Below are positions 33,098 to 40,863 of a stretch of DNA of 64,000 bases, piece by piece. Origin of the DNA: Eubacterium sp. Lineage in GTDB: Bacteria > Bacillota > Clostridia > Oscillospirales > Acutalibacteraceae. A model generated the notes under the pieces. The model searched no databases. It was not told the origin of the DNA and was given only the letters and a program-made list of their open reading frames with translations. Position 1 is the first letter of the stretch. Every line of letters begins with the position of its first letter. The DNA lies in the NCBI GenBank assembly GCA_017445905.1, contig JAFSRX010000013.1, positions 15,815-79,814 on the forward strand. Direction: 5' to 3'. The position numbers and the translations under genes are program-made.

Positions 33098-34332
33098 TGG
33101 TATCCTTTAGTATGCTCCCTGCTTTACTGCGCAGTTTGTTTGCGCTCTGGACATTGCTCCTCTGCCTGATAAATATCGGAAGCGGTGTTCTGGCGGCGGT
33201 AAAAAAGCACCTTGCTTATACTGCTTTCGCAATTTTGCTCTTTGTGCCGTCATACTTTATGTGGCAGGTTATTTTTGACTATTCGCTGATTGAAAAAATG
33301 AAGCATATATCCGAAATTACGCAGCGCATTGTTTTATTTCCCACAGCTTACTTGTTAATAGCTTTTGTTGCTTTAACAATCGCAAGCGCAGTGCTGTTTT
33401 TGCGAAATATTAAATTTGACAGAACCTTTATTACTCCCGGCACTATTAAACTTTATCTTGATAAAGTTCCTTGCGGTATTTGCTGCTGGCGCGAAAACGG
33501 AAGGATTCTGTTTTCAAATGTCTGTATAAATGAGCTTTGTATGGAAGTCTCTTCAACCCCTCTCCTCAACGGCAATCATTTTAATGAGACAGTGAAAGAC
33601 GGAATACTGAAAATCGGCGATAAAGTATGGCGTTTTGTTTGTAACGAAATTGAGCTTGACGGCGAAAAGCTTCGGGAAATGATAGCTTCTGATATCACCG
33701 ATGAAAATGCCAAAACCGAGGCGCTCAAAAACGATAACGCCCGTATTTCACAGCTCAACAGAGAATTGCAGGATTATTATATAAGTATAGACGAATCAGT
33801 TAAAAGAACAGAAATTCTGCAAGCGAAAATGAATATCCACGATGAAATGAACCGCCTTATGCTCTTAACTGTTTCCTGCGATAAGGAGGACGTTAAGAAA
33901 CTTGATAAGGTCTTTTCACTTTGGGAACAAAATTCACTTCTGCTCTGTATGGAAGCGGATAAAAAAGCTTCAAATCAGAAATCGGAGAGTCTTAACGCTC
34001 TTGCAAAATCCCTCGGAATAAATCTTAAGTGGGATATGATGATTCCAAAAACGCTTACGGATGAACAAAAGGAACTCTTTTTCTTTACCTCTCAGGAAGC
34101 GTTGATTAACGCCGTTAAACACGCTGCCGCCAAGGAAATGACAATTTCTGCAGAGTCGGGTGAGGGTGAAGTTGTTTTCAGATTCACGAATAACGGAAAA
34201 ATACCAACGAGTGAGATACACTATGAAGGCGGACTAGCAAATATTGAATATCTTGCAGGAAAACAGGGCGCAACCGTTAGTGTTGAACTCAGCGAAGCAT
34301 TCACTCTTGTCTTGCAGATTAAACTCTCATAA
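33097..34332 (+). CDS. NarX/DesK-type sensor histidine kinase
   Basis: H-box NIHDEMNR, N-box QEALINAVKHA, FTNNG (G1-like), GGLANI (G2-like); 1-bp TAATG overlap with the upstream gene. Confidence 0.8.
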   Translation: MVSFSMLPALLRSLFALWTLLLCLINIGSGVLAAVKKHLAYTAFAILLFVPSYFMWQVIFDYSLIEKMKHISEITQRIVLFPTAYLLIAFVALTIASAVLFLRNIKFDRTFITPGTIKLYLDKVPCGICCWRENGRILFSNVCINELCMEVSSTPLLNGNHFNETVKDGILKIGDKVWRFVCNEIELDGEKLREMIASDITDENAKTEALKNDNARISQLNRELQDYYISIDESVKRTEILQAKMNIHDEMNRLMLLTVSCDKEDVKKLDKVFSLWEQNSLLLCMEADKKASNQKSESLNALAKSLGINLKWDMMIPKTLTDEQKELFFFTSQEALINAVKHAAAKEMTISAESGEGEVVFRFTNNGKIPTSEIHYEGGLANIEYLAGKQGATVSVELSEAFTLVLQIKLS

Positions 34333-34340
34333 AAGAACGT

Positions 34341-34391
34341 AAAAAAAGCATAGCTCCCTTAGAAAAATGTCCTAAGGAGCTATGCTTTTTT
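34341..34391. terminator. Bidirectional terminator
   Basis: aaaaaagcatagctcc...ggagctatgctttttt stem between convergent genes. Confidence 0.85.
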
Positions 34392-34397
34392 GTTTTA

Positions 34398-35105
34398 TTA
34401 TTTGAAATCCTTTTCGCAGAGCGCTTCAACCTCTTCACAAACTGCTTTAAGGCTGCAGGTTTGGCAGTCCATTTTTATATCCTTCATTATATGGTCGAGT
34501 GCCGTTGTTATGTTTTCCGATTTTTGCATTATTGTTTCAAGCTCATCATAAGGAAAATCCTTTGCAGTCACAAAGAGAAGCTTAACCGCTTCAACCTGGG
34601 GCTGTTTTTTATATTCTTCAATAAAGAGTTTTCCAATATCAGAAAAGCTGATTCCATTTTTTATGGCTTTTTTGCTTACTCTTGCGGCTTCCCTGTGGGT
34701 AAATGCGGAAATTCTCATCATATATCCCTCGGGATTGATATGATAGCGGGCATATTCGATTTTTCTTATAGTCTGATATAGCTTTTCGCCAGTTCCCATT
34801 TCATTTTCATTAACACGAATAAGCGCAATTCTTGCGAAAGGTGAATTTGCTTTTATATCGCATAAATCATCACCGATAAGAAGAATTTCGTCACAGGGAA
34901 CATATTCCTCCTTGTCAGTAAATGCAACGCTGCTTACTGCAGGAAGTGTTCCTGAACCGAGTTCATATGCAGTATCGTTTAGAAAAACTATCTGGTTTTT
35001 ATCAGAACTCTTCCATTTGGAAGGGCTGTTTGCTTCAAATTTCTTAACGCAGTGGCTTTTTAAGATTTTGCCAACTCCGTCAAAACATTCATTATATAGT
35101 TTCAT
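34398..35105 (-). CDS. Stand-alone acetyl-CoA synthase (CdhC/AcsB) middle-domain homolog with a C-terminal CxxCx5Cx6C motif
   Basis: AYELG, ILLIGDDL...PFA, INPEGYMMR...RVSKKAIKNGISFSDIG resemble the ACS middle domain; only 235 aa. Confidence 0.7.
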   Translation of the reverse strand: MKLYNECFDGVGKILKSHCVKKFEANSPSKWKSSDKNQIVFLNDTAYELGSGTLPAVSSVAFTDKEEYVPCDEILLIGDDLCDIKANSPFARIALIRVNENEMGTGEKLYQTIRKIEYARYHINPEGYMMRISAFTHREAARVSKKAIKNGISFSDIGKLFIEEYKKQPQVEAVKLLFVTAKDFPYDELETIMQKSENITTALDHIMKDIKMDCQTCSLKAVCEEVEALCEKDFK

Positions 35106-35106
35106 A

Positions 35107-35874
35107 TTATAATACTTTCAGTTTTTTCAGTGCCTCTTTTGTACCGAGAACAACGGGGGACTCCTCAGAGAGCTTATAAACGCTTTCACCCCTCATATCA
35201 TTAAGCGCCATTTCTCTGTCATCGCTAATGCAGGAAAGCAGTTCAAGTCTTCCTGTATCAAGGCTATCCTTAAGTTGTATATCGGGCATTCTGTTGATTA
35301 TAACTCCTGTTTTATCAAACATAACGAGTTCTTTTGCAACCTTGTGAATTGTCTGAATAACCTGCAAGCCTTTTTTGCTGGCGTCTGAAACAAGAACTAA
35401 ATGAGTAACCTTTTCCATAACTCTTCGGTTAACCTGTTCAATTCCTGCTTCACCGTCGATAACAACAAAATCGAAATTATCGGAAATCATGGAAATGATT
35501 TCTTTTAGATATGCATTAACCTTGCAATAGCATCCTGCGCTTTCAGGACGTCCGATTGCAAGAAAAGAAATATTTCCTTTTTCAACAAGCGCATCAAACA
35601 TCTGATATTTCGCTTCACCTAATAGCTCAATAGCGGCGTTTTTGTTTCCTCCTTCAACAGTCTGAACAAATGATTTTCTGATATCATCAACAGTTGAAGT
35701 TATTTCAATTCCGAGCGCAGTTGAAAGACCGACAGCGGGGTCAGCGTCAATAGCAAGTATTCTTTTATCAGGATACGCCTGTGAGAGAAGGCGAACGGTT
35801 ATTGCCGAAAGTGAGGTTTTGCCGACTCCGCCTTTGCCTACAAGGGCGATAATAGTTGTATTAGTTTCTTCCAT
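35107..35874 (-). CDS. cooC: CooC-family nickel-insertion ATPase
   Basis: Deviant Walker A GKGGVGKT, IDADP, GCYC Ni-binding motif, IDGEAGIEQ. Confidence 0.88.
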   Translation of the reverse strand: MEETNTTIIALVGKGGVGKTSLSAITVRLLSQAYPDKRILAIDADPAVGLSTALGIEITSTVDDIRKSFVQTVEGGNKNAAIELLGEAKYQMFDALVEKGNISFLAIGRPESAGCYCKVNAYLKEIISMISDNFDFVVIDGEAGIEQVNRRVMEKVTHLVLVSDASKKGLQVIQTIHKVAKELVMFDKTGVIINRMPDIQLKDSLDTGRLELLSCISDDREMALNDMRGESVYKLSEESPVVLGTKEALKKLKVL

Positions 35875-35876
35875 TT

Positions 35877-36065
35877 TTATTCCGTTTTTAATATAACATA
35901 TCCGTCTGTCAGGCTTGCTTTTAAAAGTGAGCCTTCAACAGTACAGCGCCTGCCCATTAAATCAATTAATATAACCTGATTTTCGGAGCATTCAACTTCC
36001 ATAACATTATTCATTATAGCTGTATCTTCGGATATTTCGTTTTTATATGCAGTTGATAAACACAT
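35877..36065 (-). CDS. cooT: CooT-family nickel-binding protein
   Basis: 62 aa, MCL start (Cys2), 'L.D.MG....V.G.L....L' pattern. Confidence 0.82.
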   Translation of the reverse strand: MCLSTAYKNEISEDTAIMNNVMEVECSENQVILIDLMGRRCTVEGSLLKASLTDGYVILKTE

Positions 36066-36067
36066 AA

Positions 36068-36232
36068 TTATAACTTCTTATCTTTCTTGAGATTATCGTA
36101 GTAAGGCTGCAGCTTATCATATATTTTTCTGACAAGCTTCATATCACTGTTTGTATAGTATATTGAAAAGGTTATAACAAAAAATGCAAACAAAACTGCA
36201 AGGATTATTAAAACAGCTTTTAAAAATTTCAT
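36068..36232 (-). CDS. 54-aa single-TM protein of unknown function
   Basis: ATG 36232 directly after the activase stop; MKFLKAVLIILAVLFAFFVITFSIYY hydrophobic stretch followed by a basic tail. Confidence 0.7.
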   Translation of the reverse strand: MKFLKAVLIILAVLFAFFVITFSIYYTNSDMKLVRKIYDKLQPYYDNLKKDKKL

Positions 36233-36233
36233 T

Positions 36234-37028
36234 TTATTTTGCCATTCCTTTCTGTCTTGCATATTCAGCAGCACCGAGCGCACCCATTAACTGAGGGTCG
36301 GTTTTAAGCTCAACAACTTTAATTTTGAGAACCTTTTCAATAGCCTGTTTTAAACCGTCGTTTTTAGCGCATCCGCCTGTTAAGGTTATGCTGTCTGTTG
36401 CGCCCGCTTTTTTTGCCATAACAAAACATCTCTTTGCAACAGCGAGTTGAATTCCTGCGGCAATTTCATCCATCGGTTTTCCTTCACCGACAAGGGAAAT
36501 AACCTCGCTCTCAGCGAAAACAGTACACTGAGCCGTAATTGGAATTGTGTTCTTTGCCTGAAGAGAAAGTTTTGAGAATTCAGGTAAAGTCATTTCAAAC
36601 GCATTCGCCATTGCTTCATAAAAACGCCCTGTTCCTGCAGCGCATTTATCATTCATAGCAAAATTCTTAACAGTTCCGTCGGTATCAATAGCAATGCCCT
36701 TTACGTCCTGACCGCCGATATCGATAATTGCTTTAACATTGGGGTTTGTAACGTGAACTCCCATTGCATGGCAGGAAATTTCGCTTATGTTTTCGTCTGC
36801 AAAGGGAACCTTGTTTCTTCCGTATCCTGTTCCAACAAGATATGTTAAATCCTTTGCTGAATCTAATCCTTCAACCTGTGATACAGCATCATTTAGCGCT
36901 ATTTCAGCCGACTGAACGGGATTAATTTTACTTCTGTTTGTAACATCGGCAACCATTTTGCCGTCTTCATCAAGTATAACGCATTTTGTGTAGGTTGAGC
37001 CTACATCACATCCGCCAAAATATTTCAT
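36234..37028 (-). CDS. ATP-dependent dehydratase/reductase activase (HgdC/archerase, ASKHA fold)
   Basis: GCDVGSTYTK, TGYGR, SEISCH, IDIGGQDVK, MNDKCAAGTGRF, ITAQCTVFAESEVI (two cluster Cys). Confidence 0.93.
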   Translation of the reverse strand: MKYFGGCDVGSTYTKCVILDEDGKMVADVTNRSKINPVQSAEIALNDAVSQVEGLDSAKDLTYLVGTGYGRNKVPFADENISEISCHAMGVHVTNPNVKAIIDIGGQDVKGIAIDTDGTVKNFAMNDKCAAGTGRFYEAMANAFEMTLPEFSKLSLQAKNTIPITAQCTVFAESEVISLVGEGKPMDEIAAGIQLAVAKRCFVMAKKAGATDSITLTGGCAKNDGLKQAIEKVLKIKVVELKTDPQLMGALGAAEYARQKGMAK

Positions 37029-37041
37029 ATTATTTATCTCC

Positions 37042-38613
37042 TTACCATGCTAAAGTATCGTCAAAATCAACTAATGTCGGGTCAACGGGTTCTTCCTGAA
37101 GAACGGTTGTCATATATTTGTTTATATGCTCGCGCATATCTCTTCTTGAAATAGTGCGCGGGTCCATAAGGTCCTGAGGCACCCAGATAAAGCTGACATT
37201 ATGTTCTCTTGCCTGATCGTCGAAAATTCCGTTTAATCCGTCCATTCCTTTGCAGGAAATCTGGTCATACATAATAACCATATCGGCGTTGAATTCTTCA
37301 ACTATTCTCCAAAGCTCGTCAACAACATTTGCATAACCGCCCTTAGTGTGCTTACGCATTGTTGTTCTCTGAAGTGTTTTAGCAAGTGTTGATAGCGCTT
37401 TTTCTTTATCGTCTGTGTCGTACATATAATAGGAAATCATAGTTTCCATATCCATAACAACATTAACGCCCCAACAGTTTTCAAGCCAGTTTGCAAGACT
37501 GGTATAATAGTTGGCAGGGCAGGACCAGACGATAGCTCTGTGGCGCATTTCTTTTGAACATTTTGTTTTCTTTTCATATGCGTCAAGCATAAGCTTATTG
37601 ACCTTTTTATCGGTCTTTAAGAATCGCTTATCCATACCTCCTGAAATGTGGAAATAAAACAGTCTGTAAAGCCAGAAGGTTGCGCCCGTCATCTGAGGAT
37701 AATCGGTTTTGTTAACTTCCCATTTCTGAATTTCATATTCGGTTTGCTGATTATACTGCTTCATCGCTTTGAAGAAGTGATCCCAGTCCCATTTTTCGCC
37801 TGTTTGTTCTTCAACGAATTTAATAGCGGATTTAATCTCGTCAACCGCGTATTCCTGAACATCCTCGCCGTTATAACGAAGAGGAACATTAATAACCTGA
37901 GTCGGAATATTGAATCTTCTGTCTATGTATGAGGAATTGATAACCGAGCCGTCGCAGGGCATATTACAAGTCAGCGCGCATTTTCCAACAAGCGGATAAT
38001 CATCGTTAATTGCAACGCCTGCCTCAGCGGAGGGAAGGGGGCATACATCGGCGGGAACACCATAGCTCTCTGTTATATCAAGATAGGGGGGAGTTATGTT
38101 CTGGTCAACCATTGATGTTAAGAAAATCGGAATAGTTGTAACATGGTTATCCCTTAAATTAGGAAAGCCTGCAATAAACTCCGACGAAAAAATTTCATCA
38201 ACATTAACAGTTCTGTCAGCCCATTTTGAATTCTCATGAAAATGTCTGTCGTTAGCTAAAAGGAAATTGATTAAATCCGTTGTTGGTTTAACAAGCATAT
38301 TCATATGAAGATGTGTTATTCTGAGTTGAGGACCTCTGAGACCTTCGGTATGTCGGTCAACCCATGCGGGTGCTGATAGATAACTCGCCATCCAACGATA
38401 ATTTGCAAGACCCTTAACTGTTGAAACAGGAGCCTTGCCAGCCATAACAATAATATCTTTCCATGTTATAAGCCAGCGGTAGTAATCGTACATTGTGTCC
38501 GAAATTCCGCGCCACTCTCTGTGTTTGAGCAGTCCTGTTTTATCCTCGTGCAAATCTCCGAGGTTGCTCGGCTCGTTGCGCCAAAGGTTTTTAAGTTTTG
38601 ATTTTAAACTCAT
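37042..38613 (-). CDS. 2-hydroxyacyl-CoA dehydratase / benzoyl-CoA reductase-like subunit (HgdA/BcrB-type) with an N-terminal extension
   Basis: ADVCP, CNMPCDG and ISCKG cluster motifs; FDAD-like (FNADMVI) segment. Confidence 0.8.
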   Translation of the reverse strand: MSLKSKLKNLWRNEPSNLGDLHEDKTGLLKHREWRGISDTMYDYYRWLITWKDIIVMAGKAPVSTVKGLANYRWMASYLSAPAWVDRHTEGLRGPQLRITHLHMNMLVKPTTDLINFLLANDRHFHENSKWADRTVNVDEIFSSEFIAGFPNLRDNHVTTIPIFLTSMVDQNITPPYLDITESYGVPADVCPLPSAEAGVAINDDYPLVGKCALTCNMPCDGSVINSSYIDRRFNIPTQVINVPLRYNGEDVQEYAVDEIKSAIKFVEEQTGEKWDWDHFFKAMKQYNQQTEYEIQKWEVNKTDYPQMTGATFWLYRLFYFHISGGMDKRFLKTDKKVNKLMLDAYEKKTKCSKEMRHRAIVWSCPANYYTSLANWLENCWGVNVVMDMETMISYYMYDTDDKEKALSTLAKTLQRTTMRKHTKGGYANVVDELWRIVEEFNADMVIMYDQISCKGMDGLNGIFDDQAREHNVSFIWVPQDLMDPRTISRRDMREHINKYMTTVLQEEPVDPTLVDFDDTLAW

Positions 38614-39809
38614 TTTGCCTGCTCCTTTTCTTTTTGGATTTTCTTTATTTCAAGGCTTTCAACGAATGCCTGAACTCTTGTTCGTAACTGACCCGAGGCG
38701 TTTGCAGTATATTGACGGTCAACGCATACTGACGGAATACCGAAATCATTTGTTACAATATGTGAAGCGAGCGCTCTCTCATATCCCCAGTATTCACAGA
38801 ATTTGAGCTGCTCATATAAAACGCCGTCAGCATGATAATCTTCAACGAGTTTCTTAACAAAGTCACGTCTGCCCTGAACCTTGTCCTGCGACATATATCT
38901 CGGGCACTGACAGGTTTTCATATAGTGAACAATAATTTGCTCTAAAACATCACCGTCATCTGTGAGATGTATTTCCTCTCTTCCGGGAAGTGAGCCGAAG
39001 CAGAAACGGTCTGCAACAACAAGCGCTCCCGAATCCTCGATTAGCTTGGTAAAATCGGGGTCATCCATTTCTGAGCCAACAACAACAATCTTTGCTCTGT
39101 AGTTCTTCTTCTCATCGGGAACTCTTGTTTTGAGTTCCTCAGCTGTTTCTCTCAGCTTATCGATGATAAGATATTTCGGACAGCAGTAGGTTATTAGATT
39201 GAGAACATGAAATTCATATCCCGTTATTCTCGGATTTTCTTCTTTTCTGTATTCACCGATTTCTGTAATCAGTCGGCAAATCTCATTATGCTCTTCAACC
39301 GCTTTTCTTAATGCGTCATCGCTGATATCAATTCCGTAAACTTCTTTGAGTTTATCGAGAATCTTTTCCTGCATCTGGCTTTTATAGTGCTTGATAGTGT
39401 GGGGCATAATCTTGAACGGAACATCAGAAATAGTAACAAAAAACTTTTCGTTATCAACTAAATTAAGAAGTTCAAAATGCTCATAAGCTCTGTTCATCTG
39501 GGAACAGGTTTCTGTTCCGAAAAGAGCGTTAAGATGCTGATAACCGCCCTCAATGCCTCTTTCAACCAGTGCCTTTGAAAATCCGCACAAAAACGAGCTC
39601 ATATAATATGTAGAAATATCAAGAGAGCCCGTTCTCGGTGCACGAAGTCTTGTTGAAAAGCATCCGGGAAGATTAAGCAGAACTTCCGGAACATGATAAC
39701 ATGTGTAGGCAAGGCATAACTTGCCGTCTTTTTTTGCCTGCTGAACAAGCTCATTATTCGCTTCCTGCAGCAGATTTTCAAATTCATAAAGATACTTTAA
39801 ATCCTTCAT
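38610..39809 (-). CDS. 2-hydroxyacyl-CoA dehydratase-family subunit, Cys-rich (BcrC/DCCP-like)
   Basis: YTCYHVPE, FLCG, ETCSQM, RFCFG, CQCPR, LKFCEYW, GQLRTRVQAFVE. Confidence 0.85.
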   Translation of the reverse strand: MKDLKYLYEFENLLQEANNELVQQAKKDGKLCLAYTCYHVPEVLLNLPGCFSTRLRAPRTGSLDISTYYMSSFLCGFSKALVERGIEGGYQHLNALFGTETCSQMNRAYEHFELLNLVDNEKFFVTISDVPFKIMPHTIKHYKSQMQEKILDKLKEVYGIDISDDALRKAVEEHNEICRLITEIGEYRKEENPRITGYEFHVLNLITYCCPKYLIIDKLRETAEELKTRVPDEKKNYRAKIVVVGSEMDDPDFTKLIEDSGALVVADRFCFGSLPGREEIHLTDDGDVLEQIIVHYMKTCQCPRYMSQDKVQGRRDFVKKLVEDYHADGVLYEQLKFCEYWGYERALASHIVTNDFGIPSVCVDRQYTANASGQLRTRVQAFVESLEIKKIQKEKEQAK

Positions 39810-39822
39810 TTATGTTACCTCT

Positions 39823-40050
39823 TTAAAGTGTTTCAAGCACTTCTTTGAGCAGTGCATTTCCTTTGTTGTACACATTGATTGCTTCCAGCGTTTTTTCAGC
39901 CGAAGTATTCTTCCCGTCTTTTTTTAACCTTTCAGCAATCTGACATAGTTCATCGGTATGTGAAATATTATGTTTAACCATATATTCAACCAATACCTTT
40001 AATTCTTCTTCACTTTCAGCATTAACTGTGTGATGATGGTGTTCGTGCAT
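39823..40050 (-). CDS. Small His-rich helical protein, putative metal chaperone
   Basis: MHEHHHH N-terminus plus YMVKHNISHTDEL; first gene of the operon. Confidence 0.7.
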   Translation of the reverse strand: MHEHHHHTVNAESEEELKVLVEYMVKHNISHTDELCQIAERLKKDGKNTSAEKTLEAINVYNKGNALLKEVLETL

Positions 40051-40188
40051 AAATATCTGCAACCTTTCATTATATTATTACAATAGTAACATTTCTAACA
40101 AATTAAATCAACAAAAATATAAATTTTTCAGTAATAGATGACAATGAAAAATTAATGTGTTATTATTAATCAAACGGGGGGTGATTTA

Positions 40189-40863
40189 ATGATTAAACAT
40201 TTTTATGTTGAAAAGGGTGAGGGCGAGCCTCTTATAATGCTCCACGGAAACGGTGAGAATTGCTATTATTTCTCACATCAGATGGAAGAATTTTCAAACT
40301 ACTATCATATTTATTCACTTGATACAAGAGGACACGGAAAAACGCCAAGGGGCGAAAAGCCGTTTACTCTGGAACAGTTTGCCGATGATTTGCTCGGATT
40401 TATGGATGATCATAATATAGATAAAGCAAATATTCTCGGCTTTTCTGACGGCGGAAATATTGCAATGATTTTTGCAATTAAATATCCTCAAAGAGTCAAA
40501 AAGCTTGTTTTAAACGGAGCAAATTATAACACAAGTGGAACTAAATGGTTTTTTCAGTTTGCAACTGATATTAATTATAAAATAACTTCGAAAATCGCTG
40601 ACAAAAATGAAAAGCTAAAGAGAAAGAATGAACTGCTCGGTATAATGTCTAACGAACCGAACATACCCGAAGATAATATCAAAACTATAAAATCCGAAAC
40701 GCTTGTTATTGCAGGAACAAATGATTTGATAAAAAGAAAGCATACCGAGAAAATTGCCAGCCTTATTCCGAATTCAAAGCTATGTATTCTAAAAGGAAAT
40801 CATGCTGTTGCAAGAGTGAATCCAAAGGAATATAACAGAGAAGTTCTTGAATTTTTGAAATAG
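40189..40863 (+). CDS. Alpha/beta-fold hydrolase
   Basis: LHGNG, DTRGHG, GFSDGG nucleophile elbow, GTND, GNH. Confidence 0.9.
   Translation: MIKHFYVEKGEGEPLIMLHGNGENCYYFSHQMEEFSNYYHIYSLDTRGHGKTPRGEKPFTLEQFADDLLGFMDDHNIDKANILGFSDGGNIAMIFAIKYPQRVKKLVLNGANYNTSGTKWFFQFATDINYKITSKIADKNEKLKRKNELLGIMSNEPNIPEDNIKTIKSETLVIAGTNDLIKRKHTEKIASLIPNSKLCILKGNHAVARVNPKEYNREVLEFLK

Follow-up and report, generated by a model that had tools for sequence, protein, structure and literature searches.

A probable BzdN-like double-cubane subunit encoded in an eight-gene operon of a Eubacterium sp.

Introduction

The stretch of DNA analysed here, 64,000 nucleotides of a Eubacterium sp. genome (GenBank assembly GCA_017445905.1, contig JAFSRX010000013.1, positions 15,815 to 79,814; hereafter the window), carries an operon of eight genes with all gaps of 13 nucleotides or less, encoding in order a His-rich protein, two subunits termed A and B, an activase, a small membrane peptide (tm54), CooT and CooC proteins, and acsL, a cut-down protein resembling acetyl-CoA synthase (ACS) (Table 1). 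Our subject is subunit A, the 399-amino-acid product of the minus-strand open reading frame (ORF) 39809..38610, for which an earlier reading of the DNA letters (the sequence-only reading) had proposed a double-cubane cluster like that of the Carboxydothermus protein DCCP. To our knowledge, double-cubane [8Fe-9S] clusters have been studied structurally in two systems only, DCCP and BzdN. From alignments and structural models we consider it likely that subunit A is a BzdN-like accessory subunit which stores and transfers electrons through a predicted double cubane, within a heterodimer of the benzoyl-CoA reductase/2-hydroxyacyl-CoA dehydratase (BCR/HAD) family in which subunit B would be the catalytic partner.

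Table 1. Features of the operon and its upstream region in the window (aa, amino acids)
Feature	Coordinates	Strand	Basis
Promoter-like site upstream of first gene	40069..40097	-	TAGAAA-17-TATAAT, 10/12 match; consensus match only
His-rich small protein, 75-79 aa, starts MHEHHHH, operon gene 1	39823..40062	-	ORF and homologues
Subunit A, probable BzdN-like accessory subunit, 399 aa	38610..39809	-	Pfam HGD-D 1.7e-94, full length
Subunit B, BzdO/MbdO/HadB-like catalytic subunit (predicted), 523 aa	37042..38613	-	Pfam HGD-D 9e-44
Activase (archerase), ATP-dependent electron-injecting, 264 aa	36234..37028	-	Pfam BcrAD_BadFG 7.6e-58; TIGR00241 1.5e-64
tm54, 54-aa single-helix membrane peptide (predicted)	36068..36232	-	Motif Y-x-x-N-x-DMKL; no Pfam match
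CooT-family protein, 62 aa, starts MC	35877..36065	-	Pfam PF10133 9.3e-16, full length
CooC-type MinD-family ATPase, 255 aa	35107..35874	-	C115-x-C117; Pfam CbiA, AAA_31
acsL, cut-down ACS-like protein, 235 aa	34398..35105	-	ACS middle-domain-like region and C-terminal Cys motif

Cysteine ligand positions and fold of subunit A

As the sequence-only reading had listed, subunit A was found to carry cysteines at positions 37, 75, 102, 270, 300/302 and 338, in the motifs YTCYHVPE, FLCG, ETCS, RFCFG, CQCP and KFCEYW, among a total of 13 (32, 37, 50, 75, 102, 178, 209, 210, 270, 300, 302, 338 and 362), which gives a cysteine content of 3.3% against 1.6% in genome ORFs of at least 250 amino acids (95th percentile). 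Sequence matches in the PDB were to BzdN (8S02_B, 4e-28), DCCP (6ENO/7YYL, around 2e-20, at 1.5e-20) and HadC (3O3M_B, 7e-18). In the HMMER alignment, residue by residue, C37, C75, C102, C270, C302 and C338 of subunit A lay opposite Cys36, Cys73, Cys100, Cys263, Cys293 and Cys327 of BzdN, which are the ligands of its [8Fe-9S] cluster (PMC11971306), and the same six positions were opposite cysteines in the alignment with DCCP, in which six cysteines ligate the cluster and a seventh, non-ligand cysteine completes a 7-Cys motif (PMC7317905). The BzdN numbering was in register, as Arg53, Arg267, Arg290 and His330 landed at the positions given in the paper, and an invariant R54 of subunit A corresponded to BzdN Arg53, beside the distal cubane. 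At the position given earlier as 300/302, C302 proved to be the ligand equivalent, whereas C300 was opposite a proline of BzdN and was kept in only 20 of 83 subunit A orthologues.

Relatives of subunit A were gathered from 1.84 billion cluster representatives in an all-against-all search with HMMER, which gave 250 proteins at E<=1e-30, and conservation was scored in 51 full-length cluster representatives (26-57% identity). Each of the six ligand-position cysteines was kept in 47-50 of these 51, the few exceptions looking like chimeric or truncated calls, and each of the other seven in 8 or fewer. Among 83 orthologues, the six were present in 81-83. They were the only invariant cysteines in alignment A1, and in alignment A5 (43 sequences, 25-56% identity) C37, C75, C102, C302 and C338 were invariant and C270 was kept in at least 90%; neither alignment showed, at this long range, a further conserved ligand besides the six. 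As they align with the BzdN ligands and are selectively conserved, the six cysteines are, judged by these alignments, not a chance enrichment. Because conserved cysteines fill all six DCCP/BzdN ligand positions, the cluster site is by sequence not one of three cysteines only, which the sequence-only reading had named as the outcome contrary to its proposal. An extra metal site formed by C178 and C210 was considered and rejected as a general feature, C178 varying in orthologues of 52-62% identity.

An AlphaFold model of subunit A built on alignment A3 (predicted local distance difference test score, pLDDT, 82; predicted template modelling score, pTM, 0.85) had BzdN 8s02_B as its best fold match (template modelling (TM) scores 0.84/0.89; root-mean-square deviation 2.6 Å), followed by DCCP and HadC. 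The match to HadC (TM 0.83/0.88), together with its clear sequence homology, bears on an alternative in which subunit A is an ordinary beta subunit of the HadC/HgdB type that binds one [4Fe-4S] cluster, with sulfide, and uses its three further cysteines for structural or redox-regulatory ends. HadC ligates its single [4Fe-4S] cluster, which has a sulfide ligand, through the equivalents of C75, C102 and C338, and it also has a cysteine at the C302 position, though it lacks a second cubane. The alignment to DCCP and HadBC proposed by the sequence-only reading separates the two cases at the remaining positions, where DCCP matches all six cysteines and HadC has proline and alanine in place of C37 and C270. 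Down to about 26% identity, C37, C270 and C302 showed the same degree of conservation as the three proximal ligands, whereas the non-ligand cysteines drift, and we therefore hold a HadC-type subunit A to be highly improbable.

Subunit B and the activase

The start of subunit B overlaps the stop of subunit A by 4 nucleotides, and the activase gene starts 13 nucleotides downstream of subunit B. With a family profile, subunit B matched MbdO in the PDB (1.6e-9) as well as DCCP, BzdO and HadB, and the best fold matches of its model (pTM 0.79) were the catalytic subunits HadB, BzdO and MbdO. Its residues C191, C220 and C454, all invariant among orthologues (alignment A2), corresponded to the three [4Fe-4S] ligands of MbdO and BzdO (Cys95, Cys128 and Cys380 in BzdO; PMC11971306), and subunit B lacks cysteines where subunit A has its distal-cubane set, T391 or M392 standing in the place of C270.

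The sequence-only reading had also described the partner as a second, different subunit with an N-terminal extension of about 100 amino acids, and this was borne out: Cys191 of subunit B aligned with BzdO Cys95, profile position 171 aligned with HadB residue 72, and since the first 160 or so residues, which contain no cysteine, had no counterpart in BzdO or HadB, the extension comes to about 100 amino acids. This N-terminal region was strongly conserved (for example R32, E33, R35, G36, D39, T40, Y42-Y44, R46-L48 and Y72-M75), with four long helices predicted at 37-120. Two further cysteines of subunit B were conserved down to 40% identity, C380, which is invariant within the invariant motif W-L-x-N-C-W-G, and C212, which is nearly so; as a candidate fourth ligand, C380 was placed by alignment at the wrong end of a beta-strand.

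The activase matched MbdQ (5e-61), HgdC (1e-55) and HadI (2e-55) in the PDB, and its cluster cysteines C129 and C168 aligned with those of the homologues, in the motifs MNDKCAAGTGRF and CTVFAESEV. It was the sole such gene in the genome, which also has one HGD-D pair only, and because there is a single activase gene the protein is presumably a homodimer bridged by a [4Fe-4S] cluster held through C129 and C168.

Comparison with known systems and proposed function

The closest parallels to subunits A and B are BzdNO, which forms the catalytic dimer in the class I benzoyl-CoA reductase (Bzd type) of Aromatoleum sp. CIB (PDB 8S02; PMC11971306), and MbdON (PDB 9G87/9GAI), which are likewise heterodimers of two HGD-D-fold paralogues, with the six-cysteine [8Fe-9S] positions on the smaller subunit and a three-cysteine [4Fe-4S] cluster with an open site on the larger; BzdNO also shares the ASKHA-type ATPase partner with a bridging [4Fe-4S] cluster, and BzdN is the best match of subunit A. 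The joining of a double-cubane subunit to a distinct three-cysteine partner is therefore no longer unprecedented, BzdNO (2025; PMC11971306) being the published case. The two systems differ in that subunit A is only 24% identical to BzdN and falls far under the TIGR03190/TIGR03191 cut-offs, in that subunit B carries the additional four-helix extension of about 100 amino acids relative to BzdO, in the number of activase genes (BzdP and BzdQ against one in the window operon), in the host, which is here a small-genome gut or rumen fermenter, in the lack of benzoate-pathway or CoA-ligase genes nearby, and in the CooC, CooT, His-rich, ACS-like and membrane peptide genes that the window operon adds. 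DCCP and its reductase DCCP-R from Carboxydothermus hydrogenoformans (PDB 6ENO, 7YYL; PMC7317905, PMC9351452; NF040772) share the fold, the six aligned ligand cysteines and a homodimeric ATP-dependent reductase with the window proteins, but DCCP is a homodimer with the double cubane as its active site, whereas subunit A is paired with its paralogue B. The 2-hydroxyacyl-CoA dehydratases HadBC/HadI ((R)-2-hydroxyisocaproyl-CoA dehydratase, PDB 3O3M), Hgd, Fld and Lcd have the same alpha/beta heterodimer plus activase, and in fold subunit B is closest to HadB.

For A/B we infer the type of cluster, the path of electrons and a reductase chemistry, as follows. Subunit A would most likely hold a [4Fe-4S]-S-[4Fe-4S] double cubane, with C75, C102 and C338 as proximal and C37, C270 and C302 as distal ligands, and subunit B, its translationally coupled partner, one [4Fe-4S] cluster on three cysteines with an open iron site. 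Subunit B would be the likely place of catalysis, beneath a cap formed by the family-specific four-helix extension. With ferredoxin or flavodoxin as donor, the homodimeric, HgdC-type activase would spend ATP to pass an electron on to the A/B dimer. When DCCP is in complex with DCCP-R, the cluster of the reductase lies on the axis of the dimer, near enough to reach either acceptor cluster (PMC9351452). If the parallel with BzdN holds, the double cubane may let the enzyme store two electrons, and such storage would favour a substrate that is hard to reduce and takes up two electrons stoichiometrically over the recycling of one electron by a dehydratase.

Several observations weigh against this BzdN-like function. 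Subunit A scored 144.3 bits with NF040772 (double_cubane, DCCP) against a curated NCBIfam cut-off of 350, and 105 bits with TIGR03190 (BzdN) against 453.8. The seventh, non-ligand cysteine of the DCCP motif (Cys94, above the cluster) has no counterpart in subunit A, the DCCP stretch GSACIGLCGG aligning with GCFSTRLRAP, which has no cysteine at the aligned positions; C50 sits elsewhere and is not kept at distance. Of the four basic residues round the distal cubane of BzdN three are lost (R267 to L274, R290 to T299 and H330 to Y340), model confidence was low at 60-63 and 270-272, which adjoin ligand loops, and the nuclearity of the cluster is read from sequence. Finally, the operon and its flanks yielded no gene for a CoA-ligase, a CoA-transferase or another pathway step, so neither a CoA-ester substrate nor the reductase chemistry is backed by gene context. 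Operons for 2-hydroxyacyl-CoA dehydratases carry genes for a CoA-transferase and a 2-hydroxyacid dehydrogenase; neither was found in the window, nor were aromatic-degradation genes in the window or the variable flanks.

The double-cubane ligand set proposed by the sequence-only reading thus stands by alignment, and the likeness to DCCP gives way to one with BzdN: given the missing seventh cysteine and the score far under the DCCP cut-off, subunit A is, by its sequence, not a DCCP equivalog, and the channel-closing N-terminal extension of about 40 amino acids in DCCP is absent from it too. As none of the 43 sequences of alignment A5 came close to any curated NCBIfam cut-off (best E-value 7.7e-77; in the comparison with HadC/HgdB-type beta subunits, subunit A itself scored 87.7 bits with NF052456, cut-off 700), the family is by these scores a radiation between DCCP and BzdN, outside the curated models. 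A link to SAO and selenoproteins has been proposed for NF040772 double-cubane proteins (bioRxiv 2022.07.06.499078); it was set aside for subunit A, as it concerns the true DCCP family, of which the score of subunit A falls short.

These scores also bear on whether subunit A might itself be catalytic in the manner of DCCP, reducing small molecules at an exposed double cubane, with subunit B in a regulatory or accessory role. NF040772 was the top NCBIfam model for subunit A, above that of BzdN, and for subunit B as well, there are no CoA-handling genes near A/B, and in DCCP the cluster itself is where acetylene, hydrazine and azide are reduced (PMC7317905). Subunit B, however, keeps the three-cysteine open-site cluster and a strongly conserved extra domain, like catalytic subunits, and subunit A lacks the cysteine that lies above the DCCP cluster and is nearest in fold to BzdN, whose encapsulated cluster only transfers electrons (PMC11971306). 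A catalytic subunit A is in our view very unlikely.

By sequence, the family extends the double-cubane ligand set to a third lineage, one that is very widespread and whose carriers have small fermentative genomes that lack aromatic-compound metabolism. This makes it a tractable test case for whether a double cubane serves two-electron storage or catalysis, and for which gut substrate needs ATP-energised electrons.

Distribution and exchange of the gene set

A scan in which each species was represented by one genome found at least 596 loci, and the best 80 were all from metagenome-assembled genomes (MAGs), mostly from animal gut or rumen and labelled as Eubacterium sp., Acutalibacteraceae, Ca. 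Fimenecus or uncultured Clostridia. The usual gene order among these best 80 was cooC-A-B-activase-tm54-acsL, which was also seen in a Lachnospiraceae MAG and another assembly; the eight-gene order of the window recurred at the loci L094-L098, with quite different flanks. Among 82 compared module loci, subunit B followed subunit A in 78, most of the others being cut by contig ends. Close orthologues of subunit A were present in 3 of 399 sampled genomes of the class, in three different families, and in none of 8 genomes of the same family; from this patchiness the gene set is probably mobile as well as patchy.

Parts of the module also differed in their relatedness. Between the window and L010, identities were 85% for A, 86% for B and 92% for the activase, against 60% for cooC and 38% for acsL, whereas with L090 they were 54% for A and 41% for B, against 78% for cooC and 57% for acsL. 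As these identities are incongruent with those of A, B and the activase, the cooC-acsL pair, on sequence comparison, is exchanged between A/B lineages. Where cooC and acsL did not stand beside A/B, they were found elsewhere in the same genome; split loci with all parts still in the genome argue for functional dependence without physical linkage. Such split modules within one genome were L009 (A-B-tm54 only) with L101 (cooC-activase-acsL), and L017 and L019 with L100 and L099.

Companion proteins and their possible clients

The first gene of the operon encodes the His-rich protein, which was unmatched in the local Pfam copy; its relatives are labelled DUF8180 (PF26551) in precomputed annotation. 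L094-L098 carry homologues in the same place, in which His10, His31 and His35 are invariant, and CooT is present in these eight-gene relatives too; both genes were absent from the 80 cooC-first loci and so belong to one lineage only. What appears as a 360-nucleotide gap after the activase holds the tm54 and CooT genes. By tblastn, tm54 was the next gene after the activase at 64 of the 82 loci, and it was homologous to small ORFs in L088 and L090; where the activase lies elsewhere, tm54 was observed after subunit B.

CooC and CooT are known from the maturation set of carbon monoxide dehydrogenase (CODH) and ACS (CooC PDB 3KJE, CooT, AcsF), and the window CooC keeps the CxC motif, matching CooC1 (3kje, 7e-13) with its CYC aligned; C115 and C117 were kept in 72 of 72 orthologues, and the Pfam match of CooT is full length. 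The product of acsL resembles the middle domain of ACS by profile (E 1e-5 to 1e-6), matching Pfam CdhC at 1.8e-5 and positions 309-470 of 705 of NCBIfam AcsB at 1.3e-6, and its C-terminal motif C214-x2-C217-x5-C223-x6-C230, of which C214, C217 and C223 were kept in 58 of 58 orthologues, is like the cubane part of the ACS A-cluster domain (CxxC...C...C). As a plain phmmer search of acsL against the PDB found no ACS, the link to ACS rests on weak profile matches, and acsL stops short of the Ni-binding Cys-Gly-Cys of ACS.

No CODH (Prismane family) was found in the window genome, nor in four other module genomes, and the window genome, which is 97% complete, had no NiFe hydrogenase, no CdhC/ACS-type gene besides acsL, and no CbiM or NicO nickel importer. 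With neither CODH, ACS besides acsL, nor NiFe hydrogenase in the genome, CooC and CooT are here without a canonical client. It is unlikely, by analogy, that these companion chaperones are needed just to build the double cubane, because no helpers are needed for BzdNO and DCCP to gain it in E. coli (PMC11971306, PMC7317905).

That same observation lends something to the alternative that a nickel-containing Fe-S cluster, on the six-cysteine site of subunit A, on subunit B or on acsL, is installed by CooC, CooT and the His-rich protein, as do the sharing of the operon by these three proteins and A/B, the missing canonical clients, and the finding of cooC and acsL elsewhere in the genome when they do not adjoin A/B. 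The lack of a nickel importer, the end of acsL ahead of the Ni-binding motif, the lack of a conserved ligand on subunit A beyond the six cysteines, the restriction of CooT and the His-rich gene to one lineage and the separate evolution of the cooC-acsL pair from A/B all speak against it, and we judge a nickel cluster of this kind quite unlikely. A related proposal leaves the double cubane of the BzdN-like subunit A in place and has A/B and the activase deliver ATP-powered electrons of very low potential to a site of nickel or another metal, built by CooC, CooT and the His-rich protein on acsL or subunit B; we think it unlikely. Were it true, it would be a new metalloenzyme class joining an archerase to A-cluster-like organometallic chemistry, in bacteria without CODH or ACS. 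If metal insertion is the reason why CooC and an ACS-derived protein constantly accompany A/B in genomes without CODH/ACS, the known clients of this chaperone family would be extended. In the literature on CooC with a dehydratase or benzoyl-CoA reductase, on DUF8180 and on Acutalibacteraceae dehydratases, no account of the module was found.

Flanking sequences

An Rfam scan of 34000-40500 gave nothing above chance. When the flanking ORFs of the 82 loci were clustered, no family outside the module occurred in more than 16 loci, and the sole recurring family was a 209-amino-acid ORF (L049 3907-4536 and 15 other loci). In a Lachnospiraceae MAG (L088 8845-12262), a 987-amino-acid Fer4/FAD oxidoreductase and HypA came directly after the module, with Rnf genes upstream; such an oxidoreductase paired with HypA has also been described for IsrA, a family of putative isoprene reductases (PMC10134865).

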